Origin: an uncultured Chloroflexia bacterium
Lineage (GTDB): Bacteria; Chloroflexota; Limnocylindria; Limnocylindrales; CSP1-4
Reading direction: 5' to 3'
Length of the DNA: 64,000 bases
Assembly: GCA_963833705.1 (NCBI GenBank)
Contig: CAWHYQ010000007.1
Location: 3,982-67,981, forward strand
Numbering within the stretch: position 1 is the stretch's first letter; each line of letters begins with the position of its first letter. A program made the position numbers and the translations under genes. The notes under the pieces were generated by a model. That model made no database searches, was not told the origin of the DNA, and saw only the letters and a list, made by a program, of their open reading frames with translations. Shown piece by piece: positions 14,342 through 63,918 of this stretch.

Positions 14342-14455
14342 GCGGACCGACACGATCTCGGGCACCGACACGCTCTTCACCATGTAGCGCCTACGGTGAT
14401 CTGACCGAGAACGACAACACCGTGCAACATCTCACAATCTCGTACACAGAAACCC

Positions 14456-14484
14456 TTCCTTGCGGCCGACCGCTGGTCTAGCAT
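14456..14484 (+). promoter_or_regulatory. Sigma70-type promoter of the RNA/relaxase module, copy 1
   Basis: TTCCTT-17 bp-TAGCAT; copy 2 has TTCCAT-17 bp-TAGCAT with a diverged spacer. Confidence 0.65.
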
Positions 14485-14942
14485 CGAGGCTCGGCGGCTG
14501 ACGCCTCGGTCGGTCCGCCTGAAGGCCGTCTCGGTGGGCTGAGCAGCAGGCGCTGCGGTCCATCGTGTCGATCGCGTCAGGAGCAACGCTCCGGCGGTCG
14601 CTGACGGCATTCGGGTCGACGATCGAGACGTCCGCGTCGCGACTGCTCCGCTGGAGCGGTCCTGTTCGGTCGGGTCGTCCCAGGCGTGACGGCTCCCGTG
14701 ACGGACCGCTCAATCGGGCGGGAACGTGGCCAGTCCGTCGAAAAACCGGTACGCACAGTCCTTCTGTGAGGTCGCCCTCCGATGGTTCAACGGCAATTTG
14801 ATCAGCACCAGTCAGCCATCGCTGTCCTCGGCCCACGTCGGGCGGCAGGGATGGACTCTTCGATCGGGGTTTCGGGACCCCGGTCCCTGCCCGCCGTTTC
14901 GTGCCTGGGAAGGCGCGCTCCGGGCCGAGACCCTGCAGTCCC
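14485..14942 (+). ncRNA. Putative large structured RNA/leader upstream of the replication-relaxation gene, copy 1
   Basis: Strongly conserved with 46465-46922; many hairpins with G-U pairs on this strand; differences mostly in loops or compensatory. Confidence 0.6.
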
Positions 14943-15842
14943 ATGATCGGTGCGTTCACCGCCGCACCCGCACCACCTCGCCGGGTCATCGTCGATCCAG
15001 GCTTCCTGTCGTACCGCGATCGAGCTGCGCTGCGCATCCTCTACCGCGCCGACGTCGCCACTACAGCCCAACTCACGACGCTCGTGTACAACCGCCGTCA
15101 AACGGCACAGGAACGTCTCAGCGCTCTCTACCGCGCGGGCTATCTCGAACGGGCGATCCTGCCACCATCCTCCCGCGGTGGTGCTCCTCATGCCTTCCGC
15201 GTCTCCCCCCGCGGACGTCATCGTCTCGGCTACGACCCGCTCACCCGATCACGGGCCGGTACCCAGCTCCGCCACAGCCTCAACGGCGTCGAGACCGTCT
15301 GCGCGCTCGTGAACGCTTCCCGCGGCGACGGCAGCAGCGAGCCGCTCGTCCAGGCCTGGCTGACGGAGGACATGGCCCACGACCTGCTCCCGAAGACGTA
15401 TCCCGATGGCGTCGTCGTCCTCCAGGCATCGACAGGCTCCGGTGTCCTCTGTCTCGAGATCGACCAGAACACCGAGCGCGGTCCGGTCATCCGCGACAAG
15501 CTCGGACGCTACGAGACGGCGATCCGCTCCAAGGCCGGCTGGCACCTCCTGTTCGTCGTCCCGTCGTCCGAACGGGCCGGCTCGCTGGCCGGGACCGGCC
15601 GTCAGAAGGACGGCTACGCGGGGCTCGCGGGCTACGCCTGGGCGCTCGTCCTGCCCGAGCTGCGGACCCGCGGCCTCGATGCCGGTGTCGTCGCGCTCAA
15701 CCCGAACGTGGCTCGGACGACGCTCGGTGCGCTGCTGGTCGACTCGACGCCGCGGCGCTGCCCGACGCCGGTCGGCACCGACGCCTGGCTCCAGGTCCTG
15801 GGTCTCGGTGGCGACGAGGACTTCACCGAGGCGCTTCGGTGA
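14943..15842 (+). CDS. Replication-relaxation family protein (wHTH + PD-(D/E)XK fold; MOB_C-like), copy 1
   Basis: RDRAALRILY..ATTAQL (wHTH), LRHSL, YPDG...LEIDQNTE...KLGRY. Alternative start at ATG 14782 if one indel is an error. Confidence 0.85.
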   Translation: MIGAFTAAPAPPRRVIVDPGFLSYRDRAALRILYRADVATTAQLTTLVYNRRQTAQERLSALYRAGYLERAILPPSSRGGAPHAFRVSPRGRHRLGYDPLTRSRAGTQLRHSLNGVETVCALVNASRGDGSSEPLVQAWLTEDMAHDLLPKTYPDGVVVLQASTGSGVLCLEIDQNTERGPVIRDKLGRYETAIRSKAGWHLLFVVPSSERAGSLAGTGRQKDGYAGLAGYAWALVLPELRTRGLDAGVVALNPNVARTTLGALLVDSTPRRCPTPVGTDAWLQVLGLGGDEDFTEALR

Positions 15843-17177: not shown

Positions 17178-17257
17178 AGCATATGCGATATGAGCGGTGA
17201 AGGTCCAGTGATTACGGCCGAATGTCGAGTATCATGCGATATCCACGCTCAAACGGA

Positions 17258-20167: not shown

Positions 20168-20248
20168 TCAGGTCGATCCGGGCCGAGCCCGCGCCATCCC
20201 TCAACGCATACACTCGCCGGCACCAGACGGTGAGGAGGATCGGCAGGC

Positions 20249-30139: not shown

Positions 30140-30274
30140 GCGGCGGCCTCACGATCGCGGTGCCGCGCGGCACCGTACAGGACCGCCCCGAACGGGTCCG
30201 CACCCTACGGGCGGATAAGATGACCCCGATGCGGGCGCAGGATGCGGCTCGCCTGGGGGGCATAGGGGACGAGA

Positions 30275-31524: not shown

Positions 31525-31533
31525 CATCGCTCC

Positions 31534-32774
31534 GTGAGCGACGATCCGCGGCCCGAGCGCGACCCTCGAGGCTTCTCGACCCGTGCCATCCGTGCCGCGT
31601 CACACGCACCCCGGCTCGACCAGACGCCGACGAGCGTGCCGATCTACCAGACCGCGACGTTCTCGTCGGCCGATGCCGACGAACTCGGGCGCGTGGCGGC
31701 CGACGGACGGGCCGGATTCGCCTACAGCCGCATCTCGAACCCGACCACGAGCGCCCTCGGGAGCGCCTATGCCGAGATCGCCGGTGGCGCCGCGGGCGTC
31801 GCGCTCGCGTCGGGGATGGGCGCCATCCATGCCGCCCTCGCCTCGCTCGTCAGCGCCGGGGACCGGATCGTCGCGCCGGTCGCCATGTACGGGTCGACCC
31901 GCGCGCAGTTGCTGCGGACGTTCGGCGGGTTGGGGTCGAAGTGGTCCTCGTGGACACCACCGACCACGACGCCGTGGGCGCCGCGCTTGCCGCCGCTCCG
32001 ACCCGGGTCCTCTACGCCGAGACCATCGCCAATCCGACGACTGCGGTGGCCGATCACGCGGCGCTGTCCGAGGTCGCCCATCGACACGGGGCGTCGTACG
32101 TGGTCGACAACACGTTCGCCTCGCCGTATGTCTGCCGGCCGCTCGGGCTCGGCGCGGATCTCGTGGTCGAGTCGGCGACCAAGTTCCTCGGCGGCCACAG
32201 CGATCTCATCGCCGGGGTCGTCGCCGGGTCGCCCGAGCGCATCGCTGCCGTTGAACGCGTCCAGATCGACACCGGCGCGACCCTCGGGCCGCTCGAGGCG
32301 TTCCTCGTGCTGCGCGGCATCATGACCCTCGCGGTGCGGGTCGAGCGTCACGCGGCGACGGCCGCGGCACTCGCGCTCTGGCTCGAGCGTCACGACGGCG
32401 TGCAGGCGGTCTTCTATCCCGGTCTCCCGAGTCATCCCCAGCATGCGGTCGCCGCCCGCCAGTTCCGACCCGGCGTGGCGGGCGGCATGCTGGCGTTCGA
32501 GGTCGCCGGCGGTCGCGCCGCGGGTCGGGCGGTCATCGACGCGCTGCGCCTGCCCGAGCTGACGGCGTCCCTCGGGAGCGTCCACACGATGGTCGTCCAC
32601 CCGCCGTCCACGTCGCACCGCCAGTCGAGCGAGGCGGAGCTGCTCCAGGCCGGGATCACGCCGGGCCTGCTGCGCGTCTCGGTCGGGCTGGAGGATCTCG
32701 AGGATCTGCTGGCCGACTTCGGCGAGGCCCTGCGCGCCGCACGGCAGGTCGAGCCGGCGCTCGGCGCCGTCTAG
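31534..32774 (+). CDS. Cys/Met metabolism PLP enzyme (cystathionine gamma-synthase / methionine gamma-lyase; frameshift near 31930)
   Basis: YSRISNPT, ASGMGA, VDNTFASP, ESATKFLGGHSD, RVSVGLED. Confidence 0.92.
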
Positions 32775-34401: not shown

Positions 34402-36562
<2,161 letters not shown>

Positions 36563-36672
36563 GCGCCCTGTCCGTCGCTCTTCGAACGCGCCCGGCCGCG
36601 CCTCCCGCGACCGGGCGTATCCTTGCCTGACGCGACTGGCAGTCACCCGACCCGCCAGACGGCCGAGGAGGC

Positions 36673-38039
36673 ATGCGACCGTGGCCACGAGCGCCGATCG
36701 ACCGCCGCAGATCGAAGCCGCCAAGAGCGAGCGGCATCCGCTTCATCCAGCTCCAGTTCACCGACATCATCGGCCACGTCAAGGCCGTCACGATCCCGAT
36801 CCACCAGCTCGAGGGCTCGGTCAAGCACGGGACCTGGTTCGACGGCTCGTCGATCGAGGGCTTCACGCGGATCGCCGAGAGCGACCAGTACCTGATGCCC
36901 GACATGGACACCTTCGCCGAGATCCCGTGGCAGCCCGGGTCGGGCCGCGCGGCACCGCCCGGGTCATCTGCGACGTGTTCACGCCGCGCGGCGAGCCGTT
37001 CGCCGGCGACCCGCGCATTCGTGCTCCGTCGCCAGGTCGAGCGGGCGAAGGCGATGGGCTACATCGTCAACACGGGCCCCGAGCTCGAGTTCTTCCTGTT
37101 CCGCCGCGGCGAGGACGGGCTCATCGAGCCGCTGCCGCACGATCAGGCCGGCTACTTCGACTTCTCGACCGACCTCGCCCAGGAGATCCGCCAGGACATG
37201 GTCGACGCGCTCGAGGCGTTCGGGATCAGGGTGGAGGCGGCCCATCACGAGGTCGCCGTGGGCCAGCACGAGATCGACTTCGAGTACTCCGACGCGCTCC
37301 GCACCGCCGACAACGCGATCACCTTCAAGTTCGCGCTGAAGGCGATCGCCCAGCAGCACGGCCTGTACGCGACGTTCATGCCCAAGCCGATCCACGGGAT
37401 CAACGGCTCGGGGATGCACACCCACCAGAGCCTGTATTCGATCGCGCGAGGAGCGGAACGCCTTCGCCGACGCGGCCAACCCCTACGGGCTGTCCGACGT
37501 CGCGCGCTCGTACATGGCCGGGATCCTCGCCCACGCCCGCGGCATGATCGCGGTCCTCGCGCCGCTCGTGAACTCGTACAAGCGGCTCGTGCCCGGCTAC
37601 GAGGCGCCGACGTATCTGACCTGGGGCCGGACCAATCGATCCGCCCTGATCCGGGTGCCGATGGTCTCGCCCGGCAAGTCCGTCGAGGGGACGCGCTGCG
37701 AGGTCCGCTGCCCGGACCCGTCGTCCAACACGTACCTCGCGTTCGCGGCGATGATCGCGGCCGGTCTCGACGGCGTCGAGAAGGGGATGCACCTGGCCGA
37801 CCCGGTCGAGGAGTCGCTCTTCGAGATGGACGCCGCCACGATCGCGTCCAAGGGCATCCGGGAGCTGCCGGGCACGCTCGGCGAGGCGCTCGACGAGCTC
37901 GAGGCGCGACGAGGTCATCCGCGATGCCCTCGGCGACCACGTTTTCAGTCACTATGTCGAGGCCAAGCGCGCCGAGTGGGACGAGTACCGGACGCAGGTC
38001 TCGGACTGGGAAGTCGACCGCTACCTCGACCAGTTCTAG
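36673..38039 (+). CDS. glnA: Glutamine synthetase type I (frameshifted)
   Basis: [66 protein letters not shown]. Confidence 0.95.
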
Positions 38040-38055
38040 AGGAGGTCCTCCGCCG

Positions 38056-38340
38056 ATGGAAACCCCCGTTCTCATCGGTACCGGGTTCGTCATTCTCGGC
38101 CCGTTCGTCTGGGGCTTCTGCGCCTACTACGCCTACCAGAGTGCGCCGAAGTTCGGTCGTCGGGCCGGGACCTGGGGCGTCCTCGGGATCATCTTCGGGC
38201 CGATCGCGCTGATGGTCCTGTACATCCTGCCGAAGGGGCATCACGTGACACCCGCGGCCACCACCTCGAGCGGCACGCACACGACCCACAAGGATCCGCG
38301 GGCGGACCTGTACGAGGTCCCCAAGAAGAAGCACCACTGA
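38056..38340 (+). CDS. Small membrane protein
   Basis: GGAGG RBS, two TM segments (WGVLGIIFGPIAL). Confidence 0.7.
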   Translation: METPVLIGTGFVILGPFVWGFCAYYAYQSAPKFGRRAGTWGVLGIIFGPIALMVLYILPKGHHVTPAATTSSGTHTTHKDPRADLYEVPKKKHH

Positions 38341-43710: not shown

Positions 43711-45222
<1,512 letters not shown>

Positions 45223-45226
<4 letters not shown>

Positions 45227-45417
45227 GCCGGTCCGATCGTGACGACCGTGAGGCTGGAGTGTCGACCGTTGCGGGCCCGCTGCTCGTTGGTCCAGCGGTC
45301 TCGGACGAGTTGGGCGAGGGCGATGACGACGGGGTCCATCGACAGATTGTCCCCCGGCAGCCTCGACTCGGCCAGTCCGCCACTCTCGGTCACGATCAAC
45401 AGGCGCGGACCCGCCAT
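45223..45417 (-). CDS. Small ORF coupled to recombinase A (candidate directionality factor)
   Basis: DPVVIALAQLVRDRW; ATGA overlap with recombinase start; start uncertain (45339, 45417 or 45546). Confidence 0.55.
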
Positions 45418-45563
45418 CGGCGGTGCGCGCCGCGCCGGCGGCCGGCGATCGGGATCGAGGTACCGCGGGGCCGATGGGCGGCCCGGCCGCCGCCGCGCGG
45501 TCCGTTGGCAACGACGTGTTCGCCGACGGCGCTCGCTGGTGGCCATCTCCGCATCCGACCGTG

Positions 45564-46464
45564 TCACCGAAGGGCCTCGGTGAAGTCCTCGTGGCCACCG
45601 AGCCCCAGGACCTGGAGCCAGACGTCGGTGCCGACCGGTGTCGGGCAGCGCCGTGGCGTCGAATTCGACGAGCATTGCACCGAGCGTCGTCCGCGGCACG
45701 TTCGGGTTGAGGGCGACGACGGTCGCGTCGAGGCCGCGGGTCCGGAGCTCGGGCAAGACGAGGGCCCAGGCGTAGCCAGCGAGTCCCGGGTAGCCGCCCT
45801 TCTGACGGCCGATGCCGGCGAGGGAGCCGGCCCGTTCGGCCGACGGGACGACGAACAGGAGATGCCACCCGGGCTTGGAGCGGATGGCGGTCTCGTATCG
45901 GCCGAGCTTGTCGCGGATCACCGGACCGCGCTCGGTGTTCTGGTCGATCTCGAGACACAGGACCGCAGAGCCCGACGCTGCCTGGAGGACGACGACGGCA
46001 TCGGGGTAGGTCTTGGGCAGCAGGTCGTGGGCCATGTCCTCCGTCAACCAGGCCTGGACGAGCGGCTCGCTGCTGCCCTCGCCGCGAGAAGCGGTCACGA
46101 GCGCGCAGACCGTCTCGACGCCGTTGAGGCTGTGGCGGAGCTGGGTGCCGGCACGTGAGCGAGTGAGCGGGAGGTAGCCGAGACGACGACGTCCGCGGGG
46201 AGAGACACGAAACGCGTAGGGAGCACCACCGCGGCTGGACGGTGGCAGGATCGCACGTTCGAGATAGCCCGCGCGATAGAGCGCGCTGAGACGTTCCTGC
46301 GCCGTTTGTCGGCGGGTGTGGACGAGCGTGGTGAGTTGAGAGGTTGTCGCGACATCGGCGCGATAGAGGATGCGGAGCGCAGCTCGATCGCGGTAGGAGA
46401 GGAAGCCTGGATCGACGATGACCCGGCGAGGTGGTGCGGGTGCCGCGGTGAACGCACCGATCAT
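45564..46464 (-). CDS. Replication-relaxation family protein, copy 2 (1-nt insertion near 45660)
   Basis: Near-identical protein to 14943-15842; 901 vs 900 nt; frame is open upstream to ATG 46626. Confidence 0.85.
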
Positions 46465-46922
46465 GGGTCTGTAGGGTCTCAGCCCGGATTGTGCACAGCC
46501 ACGCACGAAACGGGGGGCAGGGACCGGGGTCCCGAAACCCCGCTCGGATACCCCATCCCTGCCACCTGTGGGCGGCCGAGCGACTGGCCGGCTGACTTGT
46601 CGCTGATCGAGTTGCCGTTGAACCATCGGAGGGCGACCTCATAGAAGGACTGTGCGTACCGAGTTTTCGACGGACTGGCCACGTTCCTGCCCGCTGGAGC
46701 GGGTCCCATCACGGGAGCCGTCACGCCTGGGACGACCCGACCGAACAGGACCGCTCGCGGAGCAGTCGCGACGCGGACGTCTCGATCGTCGACCCGAATG
46801 CCGTCAGCGACCGCCGGAGCGTTGCTCTGACGCGATCGACACGGCGGACCGCAGCGCCAGCTGCTCAGCCCACCGAGACAGTATTCAGGCGGACCGACCG
46901 AGGCGTCAGCCGCCGAGCCTCG
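46465..46922 (-). ncRNA. Putative large structured RNA/leader, copy 2
   Basis: Reverse-complement homolog of 14485-14942 with stems retained. Confidence 0.6.
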
Positions 46923-46951
46923 ATGCTAGGACGCTCGCGGGCCGAATGGAA
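46923..46951 (-). promoter_or_regulatory. Promoter of the RNA/relaxase module, copy 2
   Basis: TTCCAT-17 bp-TAGCAT on the minus strand. Confidence 0.65.
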
Positions 46952-47205
46952 GGGCTTCTGTGTACGAGATTGTGTGCCGCTCATTTCCGGACGAGTCGGG
47001 AGGGTGGGCGGAAGCCCTCGGGACTCGCTGGATTCCCGACGACCCGGTTGAGGCCCCGCATTGTCGCGCCTAAGATCATTCGATCGTCCTTGGTGCGGAC
47101 TGGTGCGGTAGTCCCCAGTTGACGCGGCCGACACCCGGGCGGACGATGCTGGACGGCACGGGGGCGGGCACGCTATCCGGAAGGCGCGGGGGTCGAGGAG
47201 GGATC

Positions 47206-50200
47206 GTGTTTCACGATCAGCCATCGCGCCGCGGCTTTGTGTTGCTCAGCGCAATCTTGTTGTCGACGCAATTGGCGTGGGTCCCAGCCGCCACTGCGGC
47301 CACACCCGGCGCTCCGATCCGATACACCTACGATCCGAGTGGCCGCCTATCCGCCGTGATCGATCCGGCAGCCGGTTCCGCCCAGTACGCGTACGACGCC
47401 GCCGGCAACAACACCTCGATCACCCGCCGAGCCGCGACCGTCGCGGCGATCCTAGAGTTCTCGCCACGATCCGGCCCGACCGGCACCCAGGTGACAATCG
47501 ACGGCACGGGCTTCAGCGCGACGCCTTCCCAGAACACGGTCAAGGTCCACGGCGTCGTCGCGACGGTCGTTTCTGCCACGCCGACCGAGATCGTCGCCAC
47601 CGTGCCCGCGTCCGCGACGACCGGCACGATCAGTGTGACAAGTCCGGCCGGCACGGCGACCAGCACGGCGTCGTTCACCGTCGGTTCGGTTGTGCCGACC
47701 GTGAGCGGTTTCTCCCCGGCGATGGCCTCGCCGGGTGCGACGCTGACGATCACGGGCACGAACTTCGACACCACAGCCGCCTCGGACTCCGCCCGGGTCA
47801 GCCTGCTCCTCGCCAAGGTGACTTCGGCGACCGCCACCTCGATCGCCGCCGTCGTACCACCTGGTGCGTCCGGTCACGTCTCGGTCACCACACGCAACGG
47901 GACGGCCACGAGTTCGGGCTACTTCTTCGTACCTCCACCCGGTCGTACCACGGCCGACATCGACGACACCAAGACGGCGACCATCGGCGGTGCGGCCGTC
48001 ACGGCGACGGTCACGCACGCGGGCAACGACGCCCTGATCGTCTTCGACGGCACCCAGGGTCAGCTCGTGGCCTGGACGTTCGGCACCGTGACCGTGAGCA
48101 ACTCGGTGACGATCCTCGCCCCGGATGGCTCGACCCTGCGTGGCGCGCAGGGCACCGGAAGCGGAACGTTCTACGACTCGATGGCGCTGCCCATGTCCGG
48201 CACCTACACGATCTGGGTCGACGGGAGCGTCGGGACGGTCGGCACCCTAGCGGTCCAGGTCCTGAGCGTGCCGCCCGATGCGACGGCCACAGGCACGATC
48301 GGCGGACCGATGACGACCGTGACCACGACCGTCTCCGGCCAGAACGCCAAGATCCTGTTCGACGCCACCCAGGGCACACTGGCCAGCTGGCTGATGGGCT
48401 ACACCGCCTACAACAACCGCGCCCGGATCCTGAACCCGGACGGCTCGGTCCTCCGCGACTGGCAGGGCACCGCCAACGGCATCTTCTTCGAGCCCCTGAC
48501 CCTGCCGGCGACCGGGACCTACACGATCGCCATCGACGGCATCGGGTCCGAGGCGGGCAGCCTGACCTTCCAGGTCTTCAGCGTTCCGGCGGATGCCAGT
48601 GCCACGGGCACGATGGGCGGGCCGATGACCACGGTCACCACGACCACGCCCGGCCAGAACGCGAAGATCCTGTTCGACGGCACGCAGGGCACGCTGGCCA
48701 GTTGGCTGATGGGTTACACGGCCTATAACAACCGCGCCCGCATCCTCAACCCCGACGGCTCGGTCCTGCGTGACTGGCAGGGGACCGCCAACGGCATCTT
48801 CTTCGAGCCGCTCACGCTCCCAGCCACCGGGACCTACACGATCGCCATCGACGGCATCGGCTCCGAGTACGGCGGCCTGACCTTCCAGGTCCTGAACGTG
48901 CCCGCCGATGCGACCGCCACCGCCACGGTCGGCGGCCCGCTGACCACGGTGACCACGACCGTGTCCGGCCAGAACGCGAAGATCCTGTTCGACGGCACGC
49001 AGGGCACGCTCGTGAGCTGGCTCTTCGGCACGACGACGTACAACAACCGCGCCCGCATCCTCAATCCCGATGGCTCGGTCCTGCGCGACTGGCAGGGCAC
49101 GTCGAATGGGTTGCTCTTCCCCGCGCTGACACTGCCTGCCACCGGCACTTACACGATGGCGATCGATGGCATCGGTCCGGACTATGGGTCGATCGGCGTC
49201 CAGGTCCAGAACGGCCGGGCTTCGCCCCGCGGGCGCCGACTGATGCCGCGCCGGCAGTCCTTGCGGTCTGGCATGGTGGCGAAAGCGCGTCCACGTCGAG
49301 CATCGGCAACTCGCCGGGCCGCATCGAGCCCCGCCCGCCGATCGATCCCGCGGCCGATCCGCCGCCGGCGACCGGTCCCGAGGACTGGACCCCCGATCCC
49401 TCGAATCAGCACGGTGACTGGCGATCGCATCGACCCCGTTCCGCCTGGGAGGACCAGGCTCCGCTACGGGCAGGGTCGGGTGTCACAGCCCTGAGTGGTC
49501 TCGTGCTCGACCTTCGCGGCGAGCCGTTGCAAGGCGTCACCCTGACGGTCGGCGACAAGGCGACCACAAGCGACGCGAGGGGTCGGTTCCTGCTCGCGGA
49601 CGTCGATCCTGCGAGCCCGACCCTCGAGATCGAAGGCTCGACCGCCGCTCGGCCCGGCCGGACATATGGCTTCTTCGAGGCGCGGGTCGAGCTTGCGGCA
49701 GGCCTAACGACGGTGCTGCCGTACACGATCTGGATGCCGAAACTCGACACGGCCCACACCGTGACGATCCCGGCCGTGATCGACCACGACATCGTGGTCA
49801 CGACCCCGAAGATCCCGGGGCTCGAGCTGCACATCCCGGCCGGGTCGTCGATCACCGACGAGGACGGTCACCCAGTGACCGAGATCGGGATCACCCCGAT
49901 CCCGATCGACCGCACCCCGTTCCCGCTTCCGGTGAACTCGATCATCCCGGTCTACTTCACCATCCAGCCCGGCGGTGCCTATGTCGCCCCCAAAGGTGCC
50001 TGGCTCGTCTACCCGAACTACATCAACGCGAGCCCAGGTGCCGGGATCGACTTCTTCAGCTACGACCCCGACGACAAGGGTTGGCACGTCTACGGCCACG
50101 GCACCACCAGCCCCGACAACTCGCAGATCGTGCCCGATGCCGCCACCCGGATCTGGGCCTTCACCGGGGCGATGATCAACAGCGGCAACAACCCCGCGAG

Positions 50201-53200
50201 CACCGGGCCTAACCATGGCAGCGGCGACGGGGACCCGGTCGATCTCAACAGCGGTCTTTTCGTGCTGAGCAAGACCGACCTGGTCCTCGATGGCGTCATG
50301 CCCTTGAGCGTGACGCGAACCTATCGCCCGAACGACACGGACAACCGGCCATTCGGCAAGGGGACGAACTGGAACTTCGGGATCTTCCTGTGGTCGGCCG
50401 TGCAGTACCAGGAAGCCGATCTGGTGCTGCCTAGTTCGCAGCGGATCCACTACGTCCGCACGTCGCCTGGGACCGGGCCGACCGACGCCATCTTCGAGAG
50501 CACGGCGACCCCGGACGCCTACTACAAATCGACGATCAGCTGGAACGGTGCCGGCTGGGACCTCCGGCTTCGCGACGGCACGGTCTACGTGTTCGGCGAG
50601 AACGCGCCGCTCCAGTCGATCCGCGATCGTTATGGCAACCGGGTCAACCTCATCCACCAGGGCGGCGGACAAGGCGGCAACGTCATCGCCTTGACGTCGT
50701 CGAGCGGGCGCTGGATCACCCTCGGTTATGACGCGAGCAACCGGATCACGTCCGCGACCGACGACACGGGGCGCGTGGTCGGTTACACGTACGACGCGAA
50801 TGGCTACCTCTGGAAGGTGACCGATCCGAACGGCGGCCTGACGACGTACACGTACGACGCATCGGGGCGGATGACGACGCTCAAGGATGCACGGCTCATC
50901 ACCTTCCTGACCAACGACTACTACGCCGACGGCAAGGTCCAGAAGCAGACCCAGGCCGACGGGACCACCTACCAGTTCGCCTACACGACCGACGCCGGCG
51001 GCAAGGTCATCCAGACCGACGTCACGGACCCCCGAAACAACGTCCGGCGGGTGACCTTCGATTTCGACCGGCTACCCGTTGACCGACACCAGCGCTTTGG
51101 GGACGTCGCAGGCCGAGACGACGACGATCGTCCGCCAGGCGAGCGGGGAGCTGCCGACCAGCATCACGGACGCCCTCGGGCGTCGGACCGACATCGCCTA
51201 CGACCCGTCGGGCAACGTCACGACCGCGACCCGACTCGCGGGCACGGCCAACGCGGTCACCACCACGATGACGTACGAGCCGGTCTTCAACCAGGTCAAG
51301 ACGGTCACCGACCCGCTCAGCCACACGACGACGTACGACTACTACGCCGACGGCAGTCTCAAGACCGTGACGGACCCGCTCAGCAAGGTCACGACCTTCA
51401 CCGACAACGTCGCCGGGCAGCCGCTGACGGTCAAGGACCCAACGAACAAGACGACGACGTTCGAGTACGCGTTCGGCGACCAGACGGCAGCCATCGACCC
51501 CCTCGGTGCCAAGACCAAGCGGTACGTCGATGCCGCCGGTCGGGTGGCGAGTGTCGTCGACCCAATGGCCAACCTGACCAAGACCGACTTCGACGCCCTC
51601 AACCGCCCGACCAAGGTCACGGATCCGCTCGCGGGCCTCACCCAGTTCACCTATGACCCCAACGGGAACATCCTCACGTTGTCCGATCCTCGCAACGGTG
51701 TCACGACCTACACCTACGACTCCATGGATCGTGTGGCCACACGCAAGGACCCCTTGCTCAAGACCGAGTCCTACATCTACGACGGCAACGGCAACCTGAC
51801 CAAGGTCACCGACCGGCTCGGGCTCGTCACGACCTACCAATACGACCCGCTCAACCGCAAGACGTTCGCCGGCTTCAAGACGCAGGGGACGTCGCCCAAC
51901 TTCACCTACGAGAGCACGATCGGCTACACCTACGACGCGGGCAACCGGACGCGGACCGCGGTCGATTCGCTCGCGGGTACCGTCGCGCTCGGCTACGACG
52001 ATCTCGATCGGCTGACGTCCGACAGCTCGCCTCAGGGCACGACGAGCTACGGCTACGACAACGCCGGTCGGCAGACGTCGATGACCCTGACTGGTCAGCC
52101 GCAGGTCACCTATCTCTACGACAACGCGGACCGCCTGACCTTGATCACCCAAGGCGCCGCATCGGTCGCGTCGACCTACGACGATGCCGGACGCCTGCTC
52201 ACCTCGACCTTGCCGAACGGCTTCGTCGGCACGTACACCTATGACGACGACTCGCACATCAAGACCCTCACATACACGACTGGGTCGACGACGATCGGCG
52301 ATCTTTCCTACACCTATGATGCGTCGGGTCATCGAACGACGGCCGGCGGCAGTCTCGCCCGAGTGAGTCTGCCGACGGCGGTCAGCACGACTACCTACAA
52401 CGCCGACAACCAGTTGACCAAGTGGGCCAGCACCGCCACCCAGCCGACATACGACCTGAACGGAAACATGCTGGCGGACGGCACTTATACCTACACGTGG
52501 AACGCCCGACACCAGCTCACCCAGGTCAAGCAGGGCACCACGGTCACCGCAGCTTACGGGTACGACGCCCTCGGTCGGCGGATCAGCAAGACCCTGTCAG
52601 GGACGACGACCGGCTTCGCCTATCAGGGCGGCAACTTCATCCAGGAGAAGAACGGTTCGGGCACGCCGACTGCGAACCTCCTGGCGGGCGGCACCGACCA
52701 GACCTTCAGCCGGACCGACAGTGCCGGCGCGCGCTACTTCTTGACTGACGCCCTCGGCTCGAGCGTCGGCCTGGTCGATGGGGCCGGCACCACTCAGACG
52801 AGTTACACGTATGAGCCGTACGGCAAGACGACCGTCACGGGCTCGTCCAATGGTAACGCCCAGCAATTCACCGGTCGAGAGAACGACGGCCCGCTCTACT
52901 ACTACCGAGCACGCTACTACAACCCGACATTCGGTCGGTTCATCAGCGAGGACACGGCCGGCCAAGCGGGAAGCGGCCCAAACCTCTATGTCTACGCCGA
53001 TGATGACCCGGTCATCTGGCGAGATCCAACTGGCAAGATCACGGCAGGTCTTTGCTTCAGTGCTGCTGGCGTTCTCGGTTTCTTTGGTGCCGTCGGTGAG
53101 GTCTGTCTCGTTGGGTCGAGTGCCGGAGAATTGGGGGTCACGGTTTCGGGTGGCGGCGGTGGAGCCGTAGGCGCGGGCGTCTCCGGCACGATTGGATTCC

Positions 53201-53496
53201 AAGGTTCCACGGCGGACCGCATCGACGATCTCGGTGGGCCTTTCGTGTATGCCGGCGCCAGGGCCGGCTTCGCCGGAAGCGGCTCTGTAAATGGATTCCA
53301 AGGCAGGGGCACCACCAACTCGCTCGTGACAGGCGGAGAGGTCGCGGTCGGGGTCGGTGAGGGGGCATCGTGGATGTTGGGATTTACAGCGACCAAGGTC
53401 TTCCACATCGATCCCGTCGGCTTCTTTAGCCACTTCAATCCGCTGAACATTTTCGGAGACGATCAAGGCATTCTGGGAAGGCGTAAAAGTGTATGA
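47206..53496 (+). CDS. Large RHS/YD-repeat polymorphic toxin with IPT/TIG domains and twin-arginine signal (frameshifts near 49220-49500 and 51060)
   Basis: GGAGG then GTG 47206, SRRGFVLL, IPT repeats, GDPVDL (DUF6531-like), YD repeats, YYYRARYYNPTFGRFISED...DPTG core, Gly-rich tip. Confidence 0.9.
47960..49210 (+). repeat. Intragenic tandem repeat, 315-bp (105-aa) unit, three close copies plus one degenerate
   Basis: GGCCAGAAC recurs at 48337, 48652, 48967; ARILNPDGSVLRDWQGT repeats. Confidence 0.9.
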
Positions 53497-54007
53497 GTTC
53501 GGATTGCTCGTAGCGCTGGGGCTGATTGGTTCAGCGCTCCTTTGGTACAACCAAGCGAACGCCCGGTTCAGCGAACGGGTTCTCGGCCGCGTCGGAACAC
53601 GCCCTGCAGACGACGTGACTGAATCGTCGCAAACGCGTCCCAGGGACTCAACAATCGTCAGGAGAGCTTGGGGAGTGCCATCGGACGACCCAGAGACGGA
53701 GCATTGGCGAGGGCTGATGCACCGGCGTTTCAGAATCTTCCTGTTAGGTGGGCCGCTCTTGTTCCTGTTGCCGATGCTATTTGGCTTGATCGGCTTGGAC
53801 GCGGCAATCATTTCGGGCGCCGGCCTGTTCGCATATGTGTGGCTGGGCGGCGCGCTCGTCCTCCTCGCCGTGTGGACGTTCCGATTCGTCGTGACCTTGA
53901 TCGCTTATGGGGCCGGTTCACCGCTCGAGATACGCGCAATGTTGACGTCGGTCGGCGGAGTGTCCGTCGCCGTGATCGTACTGATCGGGCTGCTGCTCGT
54001 GCGGTAG
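53489..54007 (+). CDS. Putative membrane immunity protein of the RHS toxin
   Basis: Overlaps the RHS stop; about 4 TM helices; lower GC. Confidence 0.7.
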   Translation: MYEFGLLVALGLIGSALLWYNQANARFSERVLGRVGTRPADDVTESSQTRPRDSTIVRRAWGVPSDDPETEHWRGLMHRRFRIFLLGGPLLFLLPMLFGLIGLDAAIISGAGLFAYVWLGGALVLLAVWTFRFVVTLIAYGAGSPLEIRAMLTSVGGVSVAVIVLIGLLLVR

Positions 54008-54611
54008 ACGGGTCATTTCAATCATGAATGGCGGTGGCCTATCGGGTGACCGTGTGGCAGGACGGCTGAACGCGTCCGCCGACCCTACGCGGGTAATTCT
54101 GGTCGTGCGCGGCCTTATCCATCGCCCGGTCGACCGTCGGCTCGGTCGGGCCGCCAGCGATAGCCTCGCCTTACATGCAGGCAGCGGGTCGCGGTGCCGG
54201 AGTGGCCCCCATCGGAACGCGGCTGTACAACGGTAAGCCGCGCGCGACTAGCCTTCCCTGACCGGGCTAGTACCGAAGGGCTCGAATCCCCCCCGCGCTC
54301 GGCGTTCCAGATCCCAAAGCCGAGCACGTCCGCGAGCATGTCGAGTACGGCGGCAAGGGCCGCTTGACGCTCCAAAGCCTCGATGCCGTTCGTGACGTCG
54401 ATACACAGAAGGGAAAGTCCTCGACCGGACCGAGGACATCGAGCGACTGCGGGCCTAGCCGAGTCGCCGCCGCCGCCACATGGGCGCTGAGTGGCGTCTC
54501 AGCCAGCCGAGGCGGGCGCAAAGTTACTTCCATTGGCGCCTTGTCGCCAGGCAGTCATCCGCTCAAGCGACGCCAGCGCGAGCCTCTCTGACCTCGCTTG
54601 TTATCTCGGCC

Positions 54612-56113
54612 TCAAGTCCTCTCGCCCCGACCAAACTCACCGATCTGGCGTCCGAGCTCGAGCACCGCCGGTAGCGCGGCGTCGAGACCGAGGTCGATCG
54701 CGTCGGGCGTGAGCTCGTACTCCAGCCGCTCGAAGCCCAGCACGTCGAGCCTGGCGAAGATCGCCGTCACGAGCGCCTGTCGTCCTTCGGGTCCGAATCG
54801 GCCCAGAGCGACGGCAGCGAGCGCAGGTAGTCGACGATCTCGTGCGGCGTGAGCCGCGGTCTCGCAGTGGCTCCCGGGCGATCCGTTCCTCGGCGTCGAG
54901 CCGCGCCATCGTCGCCTGCCAGGCGGCCATGTCGCGGGTCTTGGCGAGCGCGCGTGCGGCGTCGTCGCGCTCCCGCTCGATGCGGGCGAGGGTGAGCTCG
55001 TCCGACCCGCGGCCGGTCGATCGCCGTAGAGCCGGACGACCTCGCTGATGGTCGCGTCATCGACGCGCGCCGATCTGGGCGAGGAGCGCGCCGACCGCGT
55101 CCTCGTACCACGCCTGCGGATAGCAGTGGCCCTTGATCCGGGTGTCGTGGCCTCGGCTCGCGCCGCGCGTCCGGACCAGCGGCTCGCCGCCAGGAACGCC
55201 TCGCACGTCGGCGCCGGATGGCGGTAGCGGCCGACGTCGCCGTAGAGGTACTCGCCGCAGCCGGCGCAGCGCAGGCGCAGGGCGTAGGCGCGCTTGACGA
55301 TGCGGCCGGGCGTCCGCGTCCGGCGTCGCTCGCGCATCGTCTGCACCGTCGACCAGAGCGCCGGGTCGACGATCGGCGCGATGCCCGCCGGCTCGCCGGT
55401 CCGCAGCCGCCCGGCGTAGATCGGGTTGGTCAGGACCTCGCCGACGTGGGTCTTGGCGAGGCCCGTCTGGGCCGCGACCTCCCAGTCCGTGCGAGCCGGT
55501 CGCCGCGAGCTCGTAGGCGCGGCCGACGATCGCCGCCTTCTCGTCGTCGACCCGCAGGATCGAGGGCTTGCCCTCGCGGATGAGGCCGAAGGGCATCCGG
55601 TTGCCACCGGGGACCCCGAGCCGTCGTCGCTTGGCGGCGTAGCCCTCGCTGACGCGCTTGGAGAGCTTGCGGCTGTACGCCTCGGCCTCGTGGGCCTCGC
55701 GGATGAACTGGTCCCAGTGGCCGGGGTCGACGCACAGGAGCCGCTCGTCGGCGAACAGGACGACGACGCCCGCCGGCATGGAGGTGGTCCTCGACCGCGA
55801 TGAGGGTCTGCTTGAGGTTGCGCAGGAAGCGGCTGACGTAGCCGACGACGAGGACGTCGAAGGCGCCCGCCGTGGCCGAGCCGATCATCGCCTCCCAGGC
55901 GGCGCGTCCGCCAGGCCGACGTCCAGCCCGACGAGGCCACCGACCACTCGAGGCCGGCGTCGAGCAGGCCGTAGCGGTCGATGGCGCGGTCCTGCTGCTC
56001 GCGCTGGGCGTCGGGCCGAAGTTGTCGCACTGGCCGGCGGTCGACTCGCGGAACCAGCGAGCGGCCCGCAGGCCCTCGATCGCCTCGATCGACGGTGGCA
56101 GCATCCGGGTCAT
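54612..56113 (-). CDS. Large serine recombinase B (frameshifted)
   Basis: RWFRESTAGQ, FDVLVVGYVSRFLRN, MPFGL, NPIYAG, CAGCG; ends GRGERT* across the att core. Confidence 0.9.
54617..54633 (+). repeat. att core (tRNA-Pro 3' end copy) between islands A and B
   Basis: Identical to 43771-43787; 21/22 match from 54612. Confidence 0.92.
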
Positions 56114-56277
56114 GGTCGTGGCCCCTGGGTCATCGGACGTCGGACCTTACCTCGGTCACGCCGTTGTTCAAGCTCGAGGATCGCTACGACCAGGGCATAC
56201 ACGACGCTGTTGGCGCCGGGAGCGCGAACCTCGAGCGGCGTCGGTTCGCGATGGATGGGCGCGACCGGGGCGTTCAT
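56110..56277 (-). CDS. Small ORF coupled between primase and recombinase B
   Basis: MNAPVAP...NSVVYALVVAILELEQRR; ATGA overlaps at both ends. Confidence 0.55.
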   Translation of the reverse strand: MNAPVAPIHREPTPLEVRAPGANSVVYALVVAILELEQRRDRGKVRRPMTQGPRP

Positions 56278-58367
56278 GCGGTGCCCTGCGGGTAGTCGTC
56301 CGCCAGGTCGTCTCCAAAGATCCGCCACGCCGCCCGGGTGACTGCGAGGTCCTGCTCGATCCGCAGGTCGCGAGCAACCGACACATCCGACACATCCGGC
56401 ACATCAGCGGGCATCGCATCGTGCGGCACGCCGCCATGCGTGCCGCTTGTGTCGGATGTGTCGCTTATTGGCGAGGCGACATAGCGCTCCCAGGCAGCCT
56501 CGAAGTCCGCGCGCAGGTAGCCGTGAAACGGATTGCTGATGCCGCCGACCCGGTGACGCGTCGAGCGGATGCCGAATTGCTTCAGGAGCTTGGCGAGGTA
56601 GTGCGAGGTGATGGGCTTGCCGCGAATATCGCCCCACGGCGACTCCTCGATGCCGGTCAGGCCCTCGATCAGCTCAGTAGTTGCGATAAACGGACCGGTG
56701 AAGCGATCGAAGATCGTCTGGCAGTCAGTGAGGAGGCGCAGCTCGTGGCTGTCATCCGACGATGAACGTTGCGCATTGATGGTGACCGCCGCTGCGCGGG
56801 CACGGCGTGGCCAGTCCGCACCCGCGGCATCGGCGATCGCCAGTAATGACTCCCAACCGTCCTGCGCCCGATCATCGAGTTCCGCAGGCAATGCGTCGTC
56901 GGGCAGGGACAGGTCCTCGATCGCGCCGACCAGCGCTGAGATCGCGTCACGCAGCGGCGTTCCAAGGCGACGCGCGGTCTTCTCGCGCAATCGCTCCTGG
57001 CGTTCGCCGCGCGAGCGACGCTCCATCGGGATCACGATGGCCCGGTCGAGGATCGTGTCGGGCAGGCCGCCGATGCCCGCAGTTGCCTTGGGGCAGAACA
57101 CGTCGAACTCGACGAGCTCGAAGGTCTTGCCGCGCGGCGCCATGCGCGGCACCTTGGTGCCCCGTCGGTTGCCGCTGTTGAAGACCGAGCGGATGCCTTC
57201 GGTGCTGGCCGCCTTGTCGGCGAAGATCGCGTCGACCTCGTCGAGCAGGATGGTCGGGTGATCGTGGTCGATCTTCCGAAACAGGACAGATTCGGACGGC
57301 CGGGTGATCCGCCACGGCCGTGCGACCAGGAACTCGAGGACGTCGAGCACCTTGGTCTTGCCGCTCTGCTTGACCGCCGAGGTGAGGGCGAGCACCGGGG
57401 ACTGCTCGAGCCGATCGAGAGGCACATGAGTGTGGCCGACCCACAGCGCGATGGCATCGACGTAGGCCGGATCCGCAAAATGGACGAACCGGCCCAGGTG
57501 GATGGCGACGGCGTCGAGGGCTTGAGCAAGAGTCGGCGGAGGTGGCCCTTGCCCGTCGGTCCCGGAGTCCGGAGCCACCATCCACGCGACTCCGGTCTGG
57601 ATGAGACCGGATAGCTCGGGAGCAGATTTGCCGGCATCGAGCCAGTCGCTCACATCGCCCTTGGGTCGAAGCCCCGGAAGCTCGACAGTGGCTAAGCTGC
57701 TTGTGATTCCCTGGAGTGAGGACGCGACTGCCGTCGCGTGGGCGCGGCCCGGCTCATCGTTGTCGGGCAGGATCAAGACCCGGCGATTGCGCAGCGCCTC
57801 GCTGTATTCGGGTCGCCATTTGCCGGCGCCGCCGCTGTTGGTCGTCGCGATGAACCCGAGCCCGATGAGCCGATCGACGTCCTTCTCGCCTTCGACAATC
57901 AGTACCGGCTGATCGGCTTCCGCCGCCAGAAGCTCCGGCAGCCGGTACAGGACCCGGCGAACACCATCGAGGTTCCAGACCCAGCCGCCGACGCCGTCCG
58001 GGCGACGAACACTGAACCGCTTCGGCTCGCGCCGAACCACCTGATAGAGGGGTGCCCCGTCCTCGTCGCGGTAGTCGTACGTGACCACGATCAGGGATGG
58101 CGCTTTCGTGGTCGTTCTAGTGAAGAAGAGGTCGGACATCGTCAGCCCGACGGCCTCGACGATGTCCTCGGTTCGGCAGCCTCGGTGGCACCGAACGAGG
58201 ACGTCACCGGCCAGGTTTACCGAGACGCTCAGCGACGGACGCGTGTCCGGGTGCGCAGGACAGCGCGCGTACCAGCCTCCCGGGTGTTGTGACACGCGAT
58301 CTAGCGCTTCGAGCACGCGGTGGACGGCCTTGTCCGCGGCGCGATGGCTGGATTGCTCTTCGCCCAT
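56274..58367 (-). CDS. Element primase: CHC2-type zinc finger + TOPRIM + DUF3631-like domain
   Basis: ARCPAHPDTRPSLS..CHRGC, IVEGEKD, PDNDEPG, KGDVSDWL, SGKT, LLDEVD, DRAQDGWESL. Confidence 0.88.
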   Translation of the reverse strand: MGEEQSSHRAADKAVHRVLEALDRVSQHPGGWYARCPAHPDTRPSLSVSVNLAGDVLVRCHRGCRTEDIVEAVGLTMSDLFFTRTTTKAPSLIVVTYDYRDEDGAPLYQVVRREPKRFSVRRPDGVGGWVWNLDGVRRVLYRLPELLAAEADQPVLIVEGEKDVDRLIGLGFIATTNSGGAGKWRPEYSEALRNRRVLILPDNDEPGRAHATAVASSLQGITSSLATVELPGLRPKGDVSDWLDAGKSAPELSGLIQTGVAWMVAPDSGTDGQGPPPPTLAQALDAVAIHLGRFVHFADPAYVDAIALWVGHTHVPLDRLEQSPVLALTSAVKQSGKTKVLDVLEFLVARPWRITRPSESVLFRKIDHDHPTILLDEVDAIFADKAASTEGIRSVFNSGNRRGTKVPRMAPRGKTFELVEFDVFCPKATAGIGGLPDTILDRAIVIPMERRSRGERQERLREKTARRLGTPLRDAISALVGAIEDLSLPDDALPAELDDRAQDGWESLLAIADAAGADWPRRARAAAVTINAQRSSSDDSHELRLLTDCQTIFDRFTGPFIATTELIEGLTGIEESPWGDIRGKPITSHYLAKLLKQFGIRSTRHRVGGISNPFHGYLRADFEAAWERYVASPISDTSDTSGTHGGVPHDAMPADVPDVSDVSVARDLRIEQDLAVTRAAWRIFGDDLADDYPQGTA

Positions 58368-60744: not shown

Positions 60745-61054
60745 GGAACTCGAGCTCCTTGATCCGGGCGCGCTCCTCGGTCGTGAGGCCGGCCCGGGTG
60801 CCGCGCTCGATCTCCTCCTGGTGGACCCAGTGGCGGAGCGATTGAGGGCCGATGCCGAGCTGCTTGGAGACCTTGCCCACGGCGCCGTGCCATTCACCCT
60901 GCTCGGCGGCCGTCTCGAACACGAACCGGACGGCCCGTTCCTTGATCTCCGGGGGTAGCGTCGCTGGTACTCGCCTTTGCGGGAGGGTCGTTGTTCTGCC
61001 ATGGCTCCATCTTCCTCCAAGGGATGGAGTCTCCATCAGACCCAGTACGGTTCA
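60745..61054 (-). mobile_element. Truncated IS3-family element (left end plus partial orfA)
   Basis: Terminus TGAACCG at 61054; orfA RRYPPEIKERAVR...LRHWVHQEEIERGTRAGLTTEERARIKELE. Confidence 0.85.
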
Positions 61055-61487
61055 GCTCACCCCAGGGCACCACGAGCTACGGCTACGACAACGCGGGCCG
61101 GCAGACCTCAATGACCCTGACCGGCCAGCCCCAGATCACCTACGGCTACGACAACGCCGACCGTATGACTTCCATCACCCAGGGGGCCGCATCCGTCGGC
61201 TCGACGTACGACGACGCCGGACGGCCGCTGACATCGACCCTGCCCAACGGCGTCGTGGGCACCTACACCTACGACGACGACTCGCACGTCAAGGCCATCA
61301 CGTACACGACCGGTTCGACGACCGTCGGCGACCTCTCGTACACCTACGACGCGTCGGGGCATCGGACGACGGCCGGCGGCAGCCTCGCCCGGGTGAGCCT
61401 GCCGACGGCGGTCAGCACGACCACCTACAACGCCGACAACCAGCTGACCAAGTGGGCCAGCGCCGCGACCCAGCCGACCTACGACCT
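61055..61487 (+). pseudogene. RHS/YD-repeat gene remnant, paralog of 52025-52457
   Basis: 433-bp colinear match with mostly synonymous changes; abuts the IS3 end. Confidence 0.9.
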
Positions 61488-61655
61488 TCCGGATGCGGGT
61501 TCGCAAACGCCAAGGTGTGGCAGTACGCGCAATCGGGACAACCAGGGTCTTGTCCTGGCTTTGAGAGCAACGGGCATTGCTCCAAGAGTTACGGCGGAAT
61601 TGCCCTCGTCATTGATCTGGACACCGCCAACTCGCCGAACCCGTCCGGCGGCTAG
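61488..61655 (+). pseudogene. C-terminal fragment resembling a DUF1906/GH25-like glycoside hydrolase
   Basis: AKVWQY...SYGGIALVIDLD. Confidence 0.4.
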
Positions 61656-61895
61656 CGCCGAACGCCAACCGTCCTGGAATATTGCGGCCCGCGACCGCGA
61701 CGGGCGGCGGGGGCTTAGACGATCCTGGGCCCCAGACCGCCGATTGGCTGACGTGGAGTCGACCCAGCGATTGATCGCCCGAGGGCGGATGGCCCACGTG
61801 AACCTTTCTGGCGGCTGAATTGTCTACAAGGCACGATGACCAGTGGGCATCCCGTCCGTTTAGACCGAGCACATCATTGGCGCGAGGCGTCTCCC

Positions 61896-63647: not shown

Positions 63648-63901
63648 GGTGGTGGCCACCCCGGGAATGGGCGTGGCCGACAAGAACATCATTCCCACTT
63701 CCGGAGAGGCGCGGTCGCGGTTCGACTTTCGACGCAGCCGCCTGCTCCACACGGACCGGACCTTACGTTCGCATCGAACCTCCAGGCGAGCGACTTGGAA
63801 CGGCGAGACTGGCTCCGGTTCATTCAAGCCGACCGACGAGTGAGCACCCGACAGCGGTCGAAGACAATCCCGACCTTTACCCGTAAGGTGTCGGCCTGAC
63901 C

Positions 63902-63918
63902 TCCTCTCGCCCCGACCA
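63902..63918 (+). repeat. att core (tRNA-Pro 3' end copy), right end of island B
   Basis: TCCTCTCGCCCCGACCA identical to 43771-43787. Confidence 0.9.

Follow-up and report, generated by a model that had tools for sequence, protein, structure and literature searches.

In a 64,000-nt stretch of a contig from an uncultured Chloroflexia bacterium (hereafter the window, meaning the whole stretch that was analysed) we studied a compact cassette that consists of a 17-nt box, a promoter-like site, a ~295-nt sense-strand leader, a 54-codon frame, an ATGA overlap and a gene of the Replic_Relax family. We reason that this cassette is probably the mobilization module, encoding a MOBC-type relaxase, of small integrative mobilizable elements (IMEs) in Limnocylindrales-type Chloroflexota. 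Judged from its sequence, it looks like the front and the back of a conjugative coupling protein-relaxase operon, in which the leader and the short frame have replaced the coupling-protein gene. The window holds two copies, situated in islands that we call A and T, and a further island (B) lies next to island A (Table 1).

The identification of the protein as a relaxase is supported by its paralogues, which follow a TrwB-like coupling-protein gene, being placed directly behind it in all 12 fetched loci of the conjugative (type IV secretion system, T4SS) type. Some sub-threshold AAA_10 matches were found a few kb from weak Replic_Relax matches, and three such regions were fetched. The clusters of genomes G018, G257 and G248 encode T2SSF and RcpC/CpaB proteins, a P-loop_TraG/AAA_10 ATPase (~850 aa), a hydrolase with SLT and M23 domains and an ATPase with DUF87 and TrwB_AAD_bind domains (~820 aa), with Replic_Relax immediately after the latter. 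Homologues of the TrwB-like protein were present in 16 of 200 genomes of the family. Compared with the cassette protein, the T4SS-linked Replic_Relax proteins show 36-48% identity in nine loci and 27-29% in three (one pairwise comparison gave 46% over 279 residues, E 6e-64), and no recombinases adjoin their genes. In CloDF13 (MobB/MobC) and in other MOBC systems, a Replic_Relax-family relaxase is paired with a dedicated coupling protein. The gene pair of the conjugative-type loci (coupling protein, then Replic_Relax) is CloDF13-like in this respect; unlike in CloDF13, the coupling-protein gene is absent from the islands, where the leader and the short open reading frame (ORF) stand in its place.

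The Pfam model of Replic_Relax (PF13814) matched the ORF at 45223-46626(-) with 61.1 bits (cut-off 25.3, E 2e-16) and the one at 14802-15839(+) with 59.5 bits (6.3e-16). In the alignment with 12 other copies, the gene of island A was found to carry a 1-nt insertion near position 45660 that shifts its last ~30 codons, and the intact protein of island T (299 aa) was used for modelling; its homologues, about 200 in number, hardly differ in length, and all of those listed carry PF13814. The AlphaFold2 model of the island T copy (predicted local distance difference test score 88.6) has an N-terminal domain that is a MarR-like winged helix (Z ~10), while the matches of the whole model were weak (FokI, PaqCI, EndoMS, SdaI and XisH; E 3e-3 to 0.1). 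Five residues (D155, E172, D174, E178 and K186) are invariant in 30 sequences, and the protein displays what is expected of Replic_Relax, namely a helix-turn-helix together with a PD-(D/E)XK core bearing conserved acidic and lysine residues. PF13814 has been assigned to the PD-(D/E)XK fold (PMC3424549, in the part of that article considered here), and the portion of PMC5357655 drawn upon here equates it with the MobC relaxases and includes an IME class that combines a serine integrase with MobC. No plasmid relatives of the protein were recovered by tblastn in 72,556 plasmids, and no solved structures were related to it by sequence.

The same protein could be imagined as an agent of excision control, either as a nuclease acting in the manner of XisH/XisI with XisF or as a mere MarR-like repressor of the island, a role that we consider improbable. 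The winged helix, a weak Foldseek match to an XisH-family protein (E 0.095), the position of the gene in an operon with a small ORF and a recombinase, and the weak match of the G396 recombinase to the XisF model (5e-7, far below the cut-off) would all suit it. The same cassette is, however, paired with unrelated tyrosine and serine recombinases, its paralogues in T4SS operons have no recombinase beside them, and the conserved nuclease residues argue for a predicted catalytic activity.

Pairwise alignment of the two window copies, at 46974-45564(-) and 14433-15842(+), showed them to be 89% identical. The shared unit runs from CACAATCTCG (46974 and 14433) to the stop codon TGA (45564 and 15842) and is bordered on both sides by unrelated sequence; within it, conservation is higher in the ~510 nt upstream of the start codon than in the Replic_Relax gene itself. 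These are the sole copies in the genome to which the window belongs, and each is inside an island. When 400 other genomes of the order were searched at the DNA level, 22 had matches at E <= 1e-40, and every one of these belongs to the same family (the wider tally of 116 genomes is made up mostly of short, chance-level matches). When 300-nt flanks were added to the cassette query, the BLAST matches in other genomes began at query positions 294-300 (346-357 in three copies with diverged 5' ends) and stopped at 1711-1719, i.e. at the stop codon, with loci that match solely from deeper inside the cassette being left aside in these counts. An exception at the 3' border is locus L032 (G396), where homology continues and the whole serine-recombinase island type is held in common with island A. 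Past the stop codon, at least three unrelated continuations were found among the copies. The homology borders and the varied neighbours together give a pattern that fits recombination between related elements, and the sharp ends that had been proposed from the sequence alone are borne out by both kinds of alignment.

That reading had also offered the idea of an autonomous mobile cassette which moves itself between islands, for which we now see hardly any likelihood. Its sharp homology ends and the diversity of its downstream neighbours (at least three kinds) would agree with independent movement; against this, no terminal inverted or direct repeats, no target duplications and no transposase were seen at the cassette, its borders are a stop codon at the 3' side and a box common to conjugative operons at the 5' side, and its two genomic copies are both contained in islands. 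Circular or plasmid-like contigs were likewise not found by terminal overlap in the five cassette-bearing metagenome loci (four of which are the same locus) among 80 fetched.

The box at the 5' edge is conserved in 20 of 22 aligned copies and, at up to three mismatches, matches the window twice, once per cassette (0.04 matches expected by chance). In genomes G072 and G008 (L311 and L312; the same genus, hence counted as one event) a similar sequence, ACACCACCTCGTACACA, with two mismatches to the 17-nt box, precedes the coupling-protein gene of the T4SS-type locus, and is followed by TTGTGA-17-TAGGGT and, 9 nt further on, by the ATG of the coupling-protein gene. The arrangement in G197 (L307) is similar to this box and promoter, and a box-like 17-mer would be expected 0.016 times in the 111 kb searched. 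By eye, the motifs TCGTGC and GGGAC in the last ~60 nt before the relaxase start were also seen to be common to cassette and T4SS loci. On these grounds of sequence conservation, we propose the box as a candidate operator and/or core of an origin of transfer (oriT). The promoter-like site that follows the box is called from the comparison between copies: T-A-G-n-n-T is invariant in 22 copies and is preceded by TTCCnn or TTGCCG, with a spacer of 17 nt that is fixed in length and free in sequence, and diverged copies have TTGAGC-17-TACGGT or TAGAGT. The fold of the leader begins ~8 nt past this putative -10 element.

The genomic setting of the cassette was surveyed in the 17-kb contexts of 20 related loci, in which GC3-filtered ORFs (filtered by G+C content at third codon positions) were compared with Pfam at E <= 1e-5, provided that they had 90 aa or more and lay no further than ~5.5 kb from the cassette. 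Tyrosine recombinases accompany the cassette in 11 loci and serine recombinases in seven, with none detected in the remaining two (L040 and L048; in the former an unmatched ORF, adjoining tRNA-Pro(cgg), occupies the recombinase position). Together with a serine recombinase the cassette is always found at tRNA-Pro(cgg) (seven loci, the window included), and together with a tyrosine integrase at tRNA-Pro(tgg) (seven loci, the window included), tRNA-Gly(tcc) (three) or tRNA-Leu(tag) (one), and it therefore combines with at least four recombinase/target specificities. The modular exchange that the sequence-only reading had suspected from the presence of both integrase types is upheld. Primase/DUF3631, FtsK, TrwB/VirD4, VirB4 and other Rep genes were absent from all 20 loci under the thresholds given above, and a separate Pfam scan (E <= 0.01 to 1e-4) of the two Replic_Relax islands of the window found no coupling protein, T4SS or other Rep in either of them, as had been noted before.

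Repeats derived from tRNA genes bound islands A, B and T and several of their relatives (att repeats were not found for the minimal islands L037 and L038), and in islands bounded in this way the cassette is the sole conserved function other than recombination. Its company can be very small: in G367, G102 and G124, at tRNA-Pro(tgg), a distance of ~1.3-1.45 kb separates the stop codon of the cassette from the end of the integrase gene beyond it, and cassette, short spacer and integrase amount to ~2.8 kb. The islands have two of the features by which IMEs are recognized, i.e. their own integrase and attachment (att) repeats at a tRNA gene, and a relaxase and/or oriT in the absence of mating-pore genes. 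An empty-site comparison for island T, made with 40 genomes of the genus, was of no use as the synteny of the flanks is too diverged.

The closest likeness among described elements is to streptococcal IMEs (Coluzzi et al. 2017, PMC5357655), of which, as far as the portion of that study considered here goes, IME_Class_8 has an equally compact core of PF13814 relaxase, small gene and serine integrase, and in which modules are likewise shuffled between integrase types. A VirD4 coupling protein is encoded by the streptococcal elements themselves but not by the Chloroflexota islands, and the cassette further differs from them by its phylum and by its association with tyrosine integrases as well. 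A long structured leader with a coupled short frame is not described for the streptococcal IMEs in that same portion of PMC5357655.

Most of the upstream part of the cassette is taken up by this leader. In RNAalifold, 12 copies gave -119.4 kcal with a covariation term of -2.76 on the sense strand, as against -85.2 and +1.23 on the antisense strand. In an alignment of 22 copies, a 120-pair structure is 91.2% paired (33-50% when partners were slid by 1-3 columns) and contains 63 double-change cells against 28 +- 5 in shuffled alignments, none of 500 shuffles reaching 63, all of which are pairing statistics flattered by the derivation of the structure from the same alignment. Many one-sided changes are from G-C or A-U to G-U, and at four pairs G-U is conserved in 19-20 of the 22 copies. 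A covariance model (R1), built from the 297-column leader domain, scored the island A leader at 296 bits and found the leader ahead of every diverged cassette, with 100-118 bits in six diverged loci (L041, L043, L044, L045, L049 and L078), ~48-50 bits in L046 and L017, and a partial match of 27 bits where the protein is 42% identical. The model had no match in island B, nor in a set of 150 further Chloroflexota genomes, of which 146 are from outside the order, and Rfam returned no leader family at its gathering score or at E <= 1 (best E 7.6), recognizing just two tRNAs in the window. From sequence comparison, the ~295-nt fold appears to be unclassified and, among the genomes searched, confined to this family.

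Two other interpretations of the leader were rejected. A protein-coding 5' domain, on either strand, was dismissed on account of indels that are not multiples of three and of a stop before the only tidy antisense frame, and a guide-RNA function on account of matches of at most 12 nt (E >= 0.05) between leader and att/tRNA sites and of a variable stretch that does not track the integrase type. Partial R1 matches were also recorded at L086 (3909-4130, minus strand) and L028 (1453-1631, minus strand), at 37 and 57 bits, with no Replic_Relax nearby; the ORFs beside these leader fragments are without a Pfam match, and the fragments may be remnants or may represent a second context of the RNA. In L101 (the third copy in G107; 4132-4498) some 180 extra nt separate the 5' fold from the GC hairpin, which indicates that the variable stretch of the leader tolerates insertion.

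The leader is followed by a short reading frame, shifted in island A by a 1-nt insertion and intact in the sister copy (14782-14946, plus strand), which contains a GC hairpin, GGCAGGGA...TCCCTGCC (also given as GGCAGGGA...UCCCUGCC). An ATG lies exactly 54 codons before the stop of the (A/G)TGA overlap in 16 of 22 close and four of nine distant copies, and this spacing is kept across the most variable part of the leader; in one clade, -1 and +1 indels in the frame cancel each other out. The GAGG situated 10 nt before the ATG of the short frame is part of the invariant UAUGAGGUCGCC and can pair with a CCUC just downstream (helix 8).

In the R1 plasmid (tap-repA) and in IncB/IncI plasmids (repY-repZ), the synthesis of a replication initiator is controlled through a coupled leader peptide and an antisense RNA. 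As in tap/repA-type systems, a structured leader is here combined with a short ORF, conserved in frame and length, whose stop overlaps the start of a downstream DNA-processing gene, and the stop/start overlap implies translational coupling. The cassette is unlike tap-repA and repY-repZ in that its 5' fold is far larger (~295 nt) and in that the controlled gene looks like a relaxase.

The conservation of the short frame together with the ATGA overlap gives the layout of translational coupling and not that of a primer RNA, a distinction which bears on the minimal replicon that the sequence-only reading had put forward. In ColE1, a structured transcript of several hundred nt (RNA II, opposed by RNA I) lies beside the replication/mobilization functions. 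By analogy, the long RNA of the cassette would be an RNA II-type pre-primer processed at the origin, with the protein as an accessory nickase, and a predicted structured transcript of ~460 nt ahead of the gene, as well as the slot shared with a primase, might be adduced for it. We regard such a replicon as highly improbable. A ColE1-type pre-primer ends at the origin and has no coding continuation, whereas the promoter-started RNA predicted here enters the 54-codon frame, the 3' half of the transcript being an ORF conserved in length and frame that overlaps the start codon by ATGA, and the protein gene being its conserved partner. No antisense partner or promoter was noticed (a consensus scan was negative on both strands), Rfam contains no match, and the paralogues favour a relaxase.

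Under the mobilization reading, the recombinase, helped by the product of the small ORF, would excise the island, and the relaxase would bind at or near the box, nick one strand and pass the island on to a conjugative element in the same cell, whose coupling protein and T4SS would take it over. Leader and short frame would act in cis by gating the translation of the relaxase: the GC hairpin would be opened by a ribosome that translates the 54-codon frame and then starts anew at the relaxase gene, and the upstream fold, with its GAGG...CCUC hairpin, would set the access to the ribosome site of the short frame. Nicking, transfer and RNA-based gating are steps that we infer. The relaxase may additionally start rolling-circle copying of the excised circle, given that the corresponding slot of the sister island is taken by a primase. 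A more specific notion, that the leader is a sensor RNA (riboswitch-like or binding a factor encoded by the helper) which, together with the box and promoter common to conjugative operons, restricts relaxase synthesis to times when a helper T4SS is active, or else that it is an RNA partner of the relaxase priming the replication of the circle, is doubtful; if true, it would mean that large structured RNAs of a kind not described before serve the parasitism of mobile elements in this uncultured phylum of soil bacteria.

The slot in question is well delimited. Island B encodes a 697-aa protein (58367-56274) that matches DUF3631 at 2.5e-43 and the PHROG 'DNA primase' at 3e-34, the stop codon of its gene and the ATG of a 54-codon ORF overlap, and behind this ORF come a serine recombinase and att. 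Its recombinase is ~50-57% identical to that of island A over the N-terminal ~200 aa, and the small ORFs of the two islands are marginally similar (E 0.003). The orders proposed from the sequence alone thus stand, both for island A (promoter, leader, Replic_Relax, small ORF, serine recombinase, att) and for island B (primase, small ORF, serine recombinase, att; confirmed by the domain matches, the overlaps and the tRNA repeat), as does the exchange of the RNA-relaxase module for a primase in one operon slot of a common backbone. Mutual exclusivity, which had been suggested as a check, holds in the loci examined: homologues of the island B primase, present in 18 of 200 family genomes, were detected by tblastn in none of 30 cassette-bearing loci, and neither Replic_Relax nor the leader RNA was found within 1.5 kb on either side of 13 primase loci (one of which, L295, comes from a genome flagged unpublished). 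The sequence-only reading had stated that its replicon hypothesis would fail if the module commonly co-occurred with primases or with conjugation coupling proteins; the first was not seen in these loci, and for the second the outcome is divided, as close paralogues do sit behind a coupling-protein gene (12/12) and the cassette itself never does (0/20).

A number of observations weigh against mobilization as the function of the cassette. The VirD4 model (PF02534) matched none of 201 family genomes (a result that had first suggested the lack of conjugation in the family, an idea overturned by the PF10412 and PF19044 matches in the clusters), AAA_10 exceeded its cut-off in one of the 201, and the T4SS reading of the clusters rests on PF10412, PF19044, gene content and few loci. 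The window's genome, at 89.7% completeness, yielded no homologue of the type IV coupling protein or of VirB4. MOBC elements usually come with a coupling protein of their own (PMC5704250, in the part of that article considered here), and these islands do not. As for the RNA, the single-sequence fold has a z-score of -1.79 on the sense strand (-0.03 on the antisense), a scan of both strands of the leader for terminators and promoters of the Escherichia coli consensus calls nothing, the ATG at -54 is missing in 10 of 30 copies, and no public RNA run is listed as containing the locus (the DNA runs listed for it contain 5-8% of its words). The G-T pairing could equally suit a single-stranded DNA form of the same strand, the sharing of the slot with a primase fits a role in replication, and the PHROG that the protein matches (9381, at 1.8e-5) bears the label 'replication initiation by nicking'.

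The last three of these points are also what recommends the reading of Replic_Relax as chiefly a nicking initiator that drives rolling-circle copying of the excised island and is thereby equivalent to the primase, with a leader that works like a single-strand origin (sso) instead of, or besides, as RNA. This reading, which we hold to be possible and yet unlikely, gains from the mutual exclusivity with the primase, from a coding-strand-specific structure in which G-T/U pairs are tolerated, and from the fact that relaxases which also maintain excised elements are discussed in PMC5357655 (in the portion considered here). It is at odds with a fold that starts ~8 nt past a conserved -10 and leads into a coupled short ORF, as fits an mRNA leader, and with conserved G-U pairs that would be weak in DNA; the position of the paralogues behind a coupling protein in T4SS operons also speaks against it, and no circular or plasmid-like contigs were found. 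We therefore retain mobilization as the more probable function.

Table 1. Features of the window and related clusters (positions are those of the 64,000-nt window unless locus handles are given)
Feature	Position	Strand	Remarks
Island T	12291-17302		bounded by a 43-44-nt direct repeat of the tRNA-Pro(tgg) 5' part at 12291
Sister cassette, island T	14433..15842	+	intact; leader frame 14782-14946, Replic_Relax 14943-15842
Tyrosine integrase fragments, island T	16190-17222	-	sequence matches
tRNA-Pro(cgg)	43711..43787	+	integration target, attL side; abuts serine recombinase in 6 further loci
Large serine recombinase, island A	43766..45226	-	Resolvase fragment 8.4e-7; at least 6 frameshifts, three-frame reading
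Small ORF, 107 codons	45226..45546	-	no family match; stop overlaps recombinase ATG (ATGA)
Replic_Relax gene, island A	45564..46464	-	PF13814, MOBC-type
Leader reading frame, 54 codons in intact copies	46461..46626	-	ends at TGA of ATGA start overlap
Structured 5' leader domain, ~295 nt, multi-branched	46626..46920	-	sense strand
Promoter-like site TTCCAT, 17 nt, TAGCAT	46923..46951	-	comparison between copies
Conserved 17-nt box ACACAATCTCGTACACA	46959..46975	-	5' edge of cassette
RHS/TIG/DUF6531 genes, island A	47119..53496	+	Pfam; between cassette and tRNA-3' repeat at 54611
23-nt copy of tRNA-Pro(cgg) 3' end	54611..54633	+	island A / island B junction
Island B core	54612..58367	-	primase 58367-56274, small ORF 56274-56110, frameshifted serine recombinase to 54612
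Second copy of tRNA-Pro(cgg) 3' end	63899..63918	+	far end of island B
T4SS-type clusters	L302 (G018:C24), L303 (G257:C69), L304 (G248:C55); L305-L316		

The last 22 nt of the serine recombinase gene of island A (its last seven codons, GRGERI*) overlap the 3' end of tRNA-Pro(cgg), and the recombinase of island B ends (GRGERT*) within the 23-nt copy of that end at the junction of the two islands. As both recombinase genes end in tRNA-Pro 3' sequence, read on the opposite strand, the att site overlaps their own last codons. The recombinase of island A is 54% identical over 350 aa to the intact homologue of G396, and the 107-codon ORF next to it is a candidate directionality factor. Since the next tRNA-3' repeat is met at 54611, island A most likely extends from 43788 to 54610, and is larger than the genes first listed; its RHS/TIG/DUF6531 genes are then probable cargo. 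The same 10.8-kb layout recurs in G396, with a giant RHS-type gene between cassette and repeat, and the repeats at tRNA-Pro(cgg) are arranged as expected of two elements that are stacked within a single tRNA gene.

The window has ~70% G+C, and many of its genes, housekeeping ones included, are split by frameshifts (e.g., glutamine synthetases, a GGDEF protein and an ion channel; among the split regions are 34406-38337, 30266-32771 and 19930-21060). Given that housekeeping genes are frameshifted too, the breaks in the island genes are probably assembly noise; many single-base indels are apparent, and apparent pseudogenes in this assembly are not to be trusted.

Doubled features, i.e. two cassettes, a second Replic_Relax or two att repeats ~2-8 kb apart, were observed in L108 and L129 (one 23.7-kb contig), L035 (3889 and 5622), L044 (14981-15667) and L050 (14367-15344), and it seems common for these islands to accrete in tandem at a single tRNA. 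Genes with RHS repeats, DUF6531 or TIG domains adjoin the cassette in five loci (the window, L032 at 9630-16220, L033, L034 and L045), and a further RHS-type region is located at 60991-61815 of the window. The presence of RHS genes within an att-bounded island (in the window and in G396) indicates that the small islands seem to ferry cargo of the polymorphic-toxin type. Fic/DOC genes, AbiE toxin-antitoxin pairs or a lone ORF with the AbiEi antitoxin domain (L050) also recur near the cassette (window 12675-13328; L035 4427-5446; L036 10018-11563; L046 12139-13284; L050 10050-11069), and a heliorhodopsin gene (PF18761, 2.3e-96) is found just past the cassette in L040 (9518-11062), from the same-genus genome G208.

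If our reading is right, the cassette would add to the known mobilization systems a MOBC-type IME module in a new phylum, one that has no coupling protein of its own and is equipped with a large leader RNA and a coupled frame. The analysis also provides a first outline of the conjugative mobilome in Limnocylindrales-type Chloroflexota, which are abundant uncultured soil bacteria: T4SS-type elements that use a Replic_Relax relaxase exist there alongside tiny tRNA islands that consist of a recombinase and a related relaxase, several of them with RHS toxin genes. The folded leader and its coupled frame, placed where conjugative relatives have the coupling-protein gene, present a concrete system in which to test the way a hitchhiker may time the processing of its own DNA.

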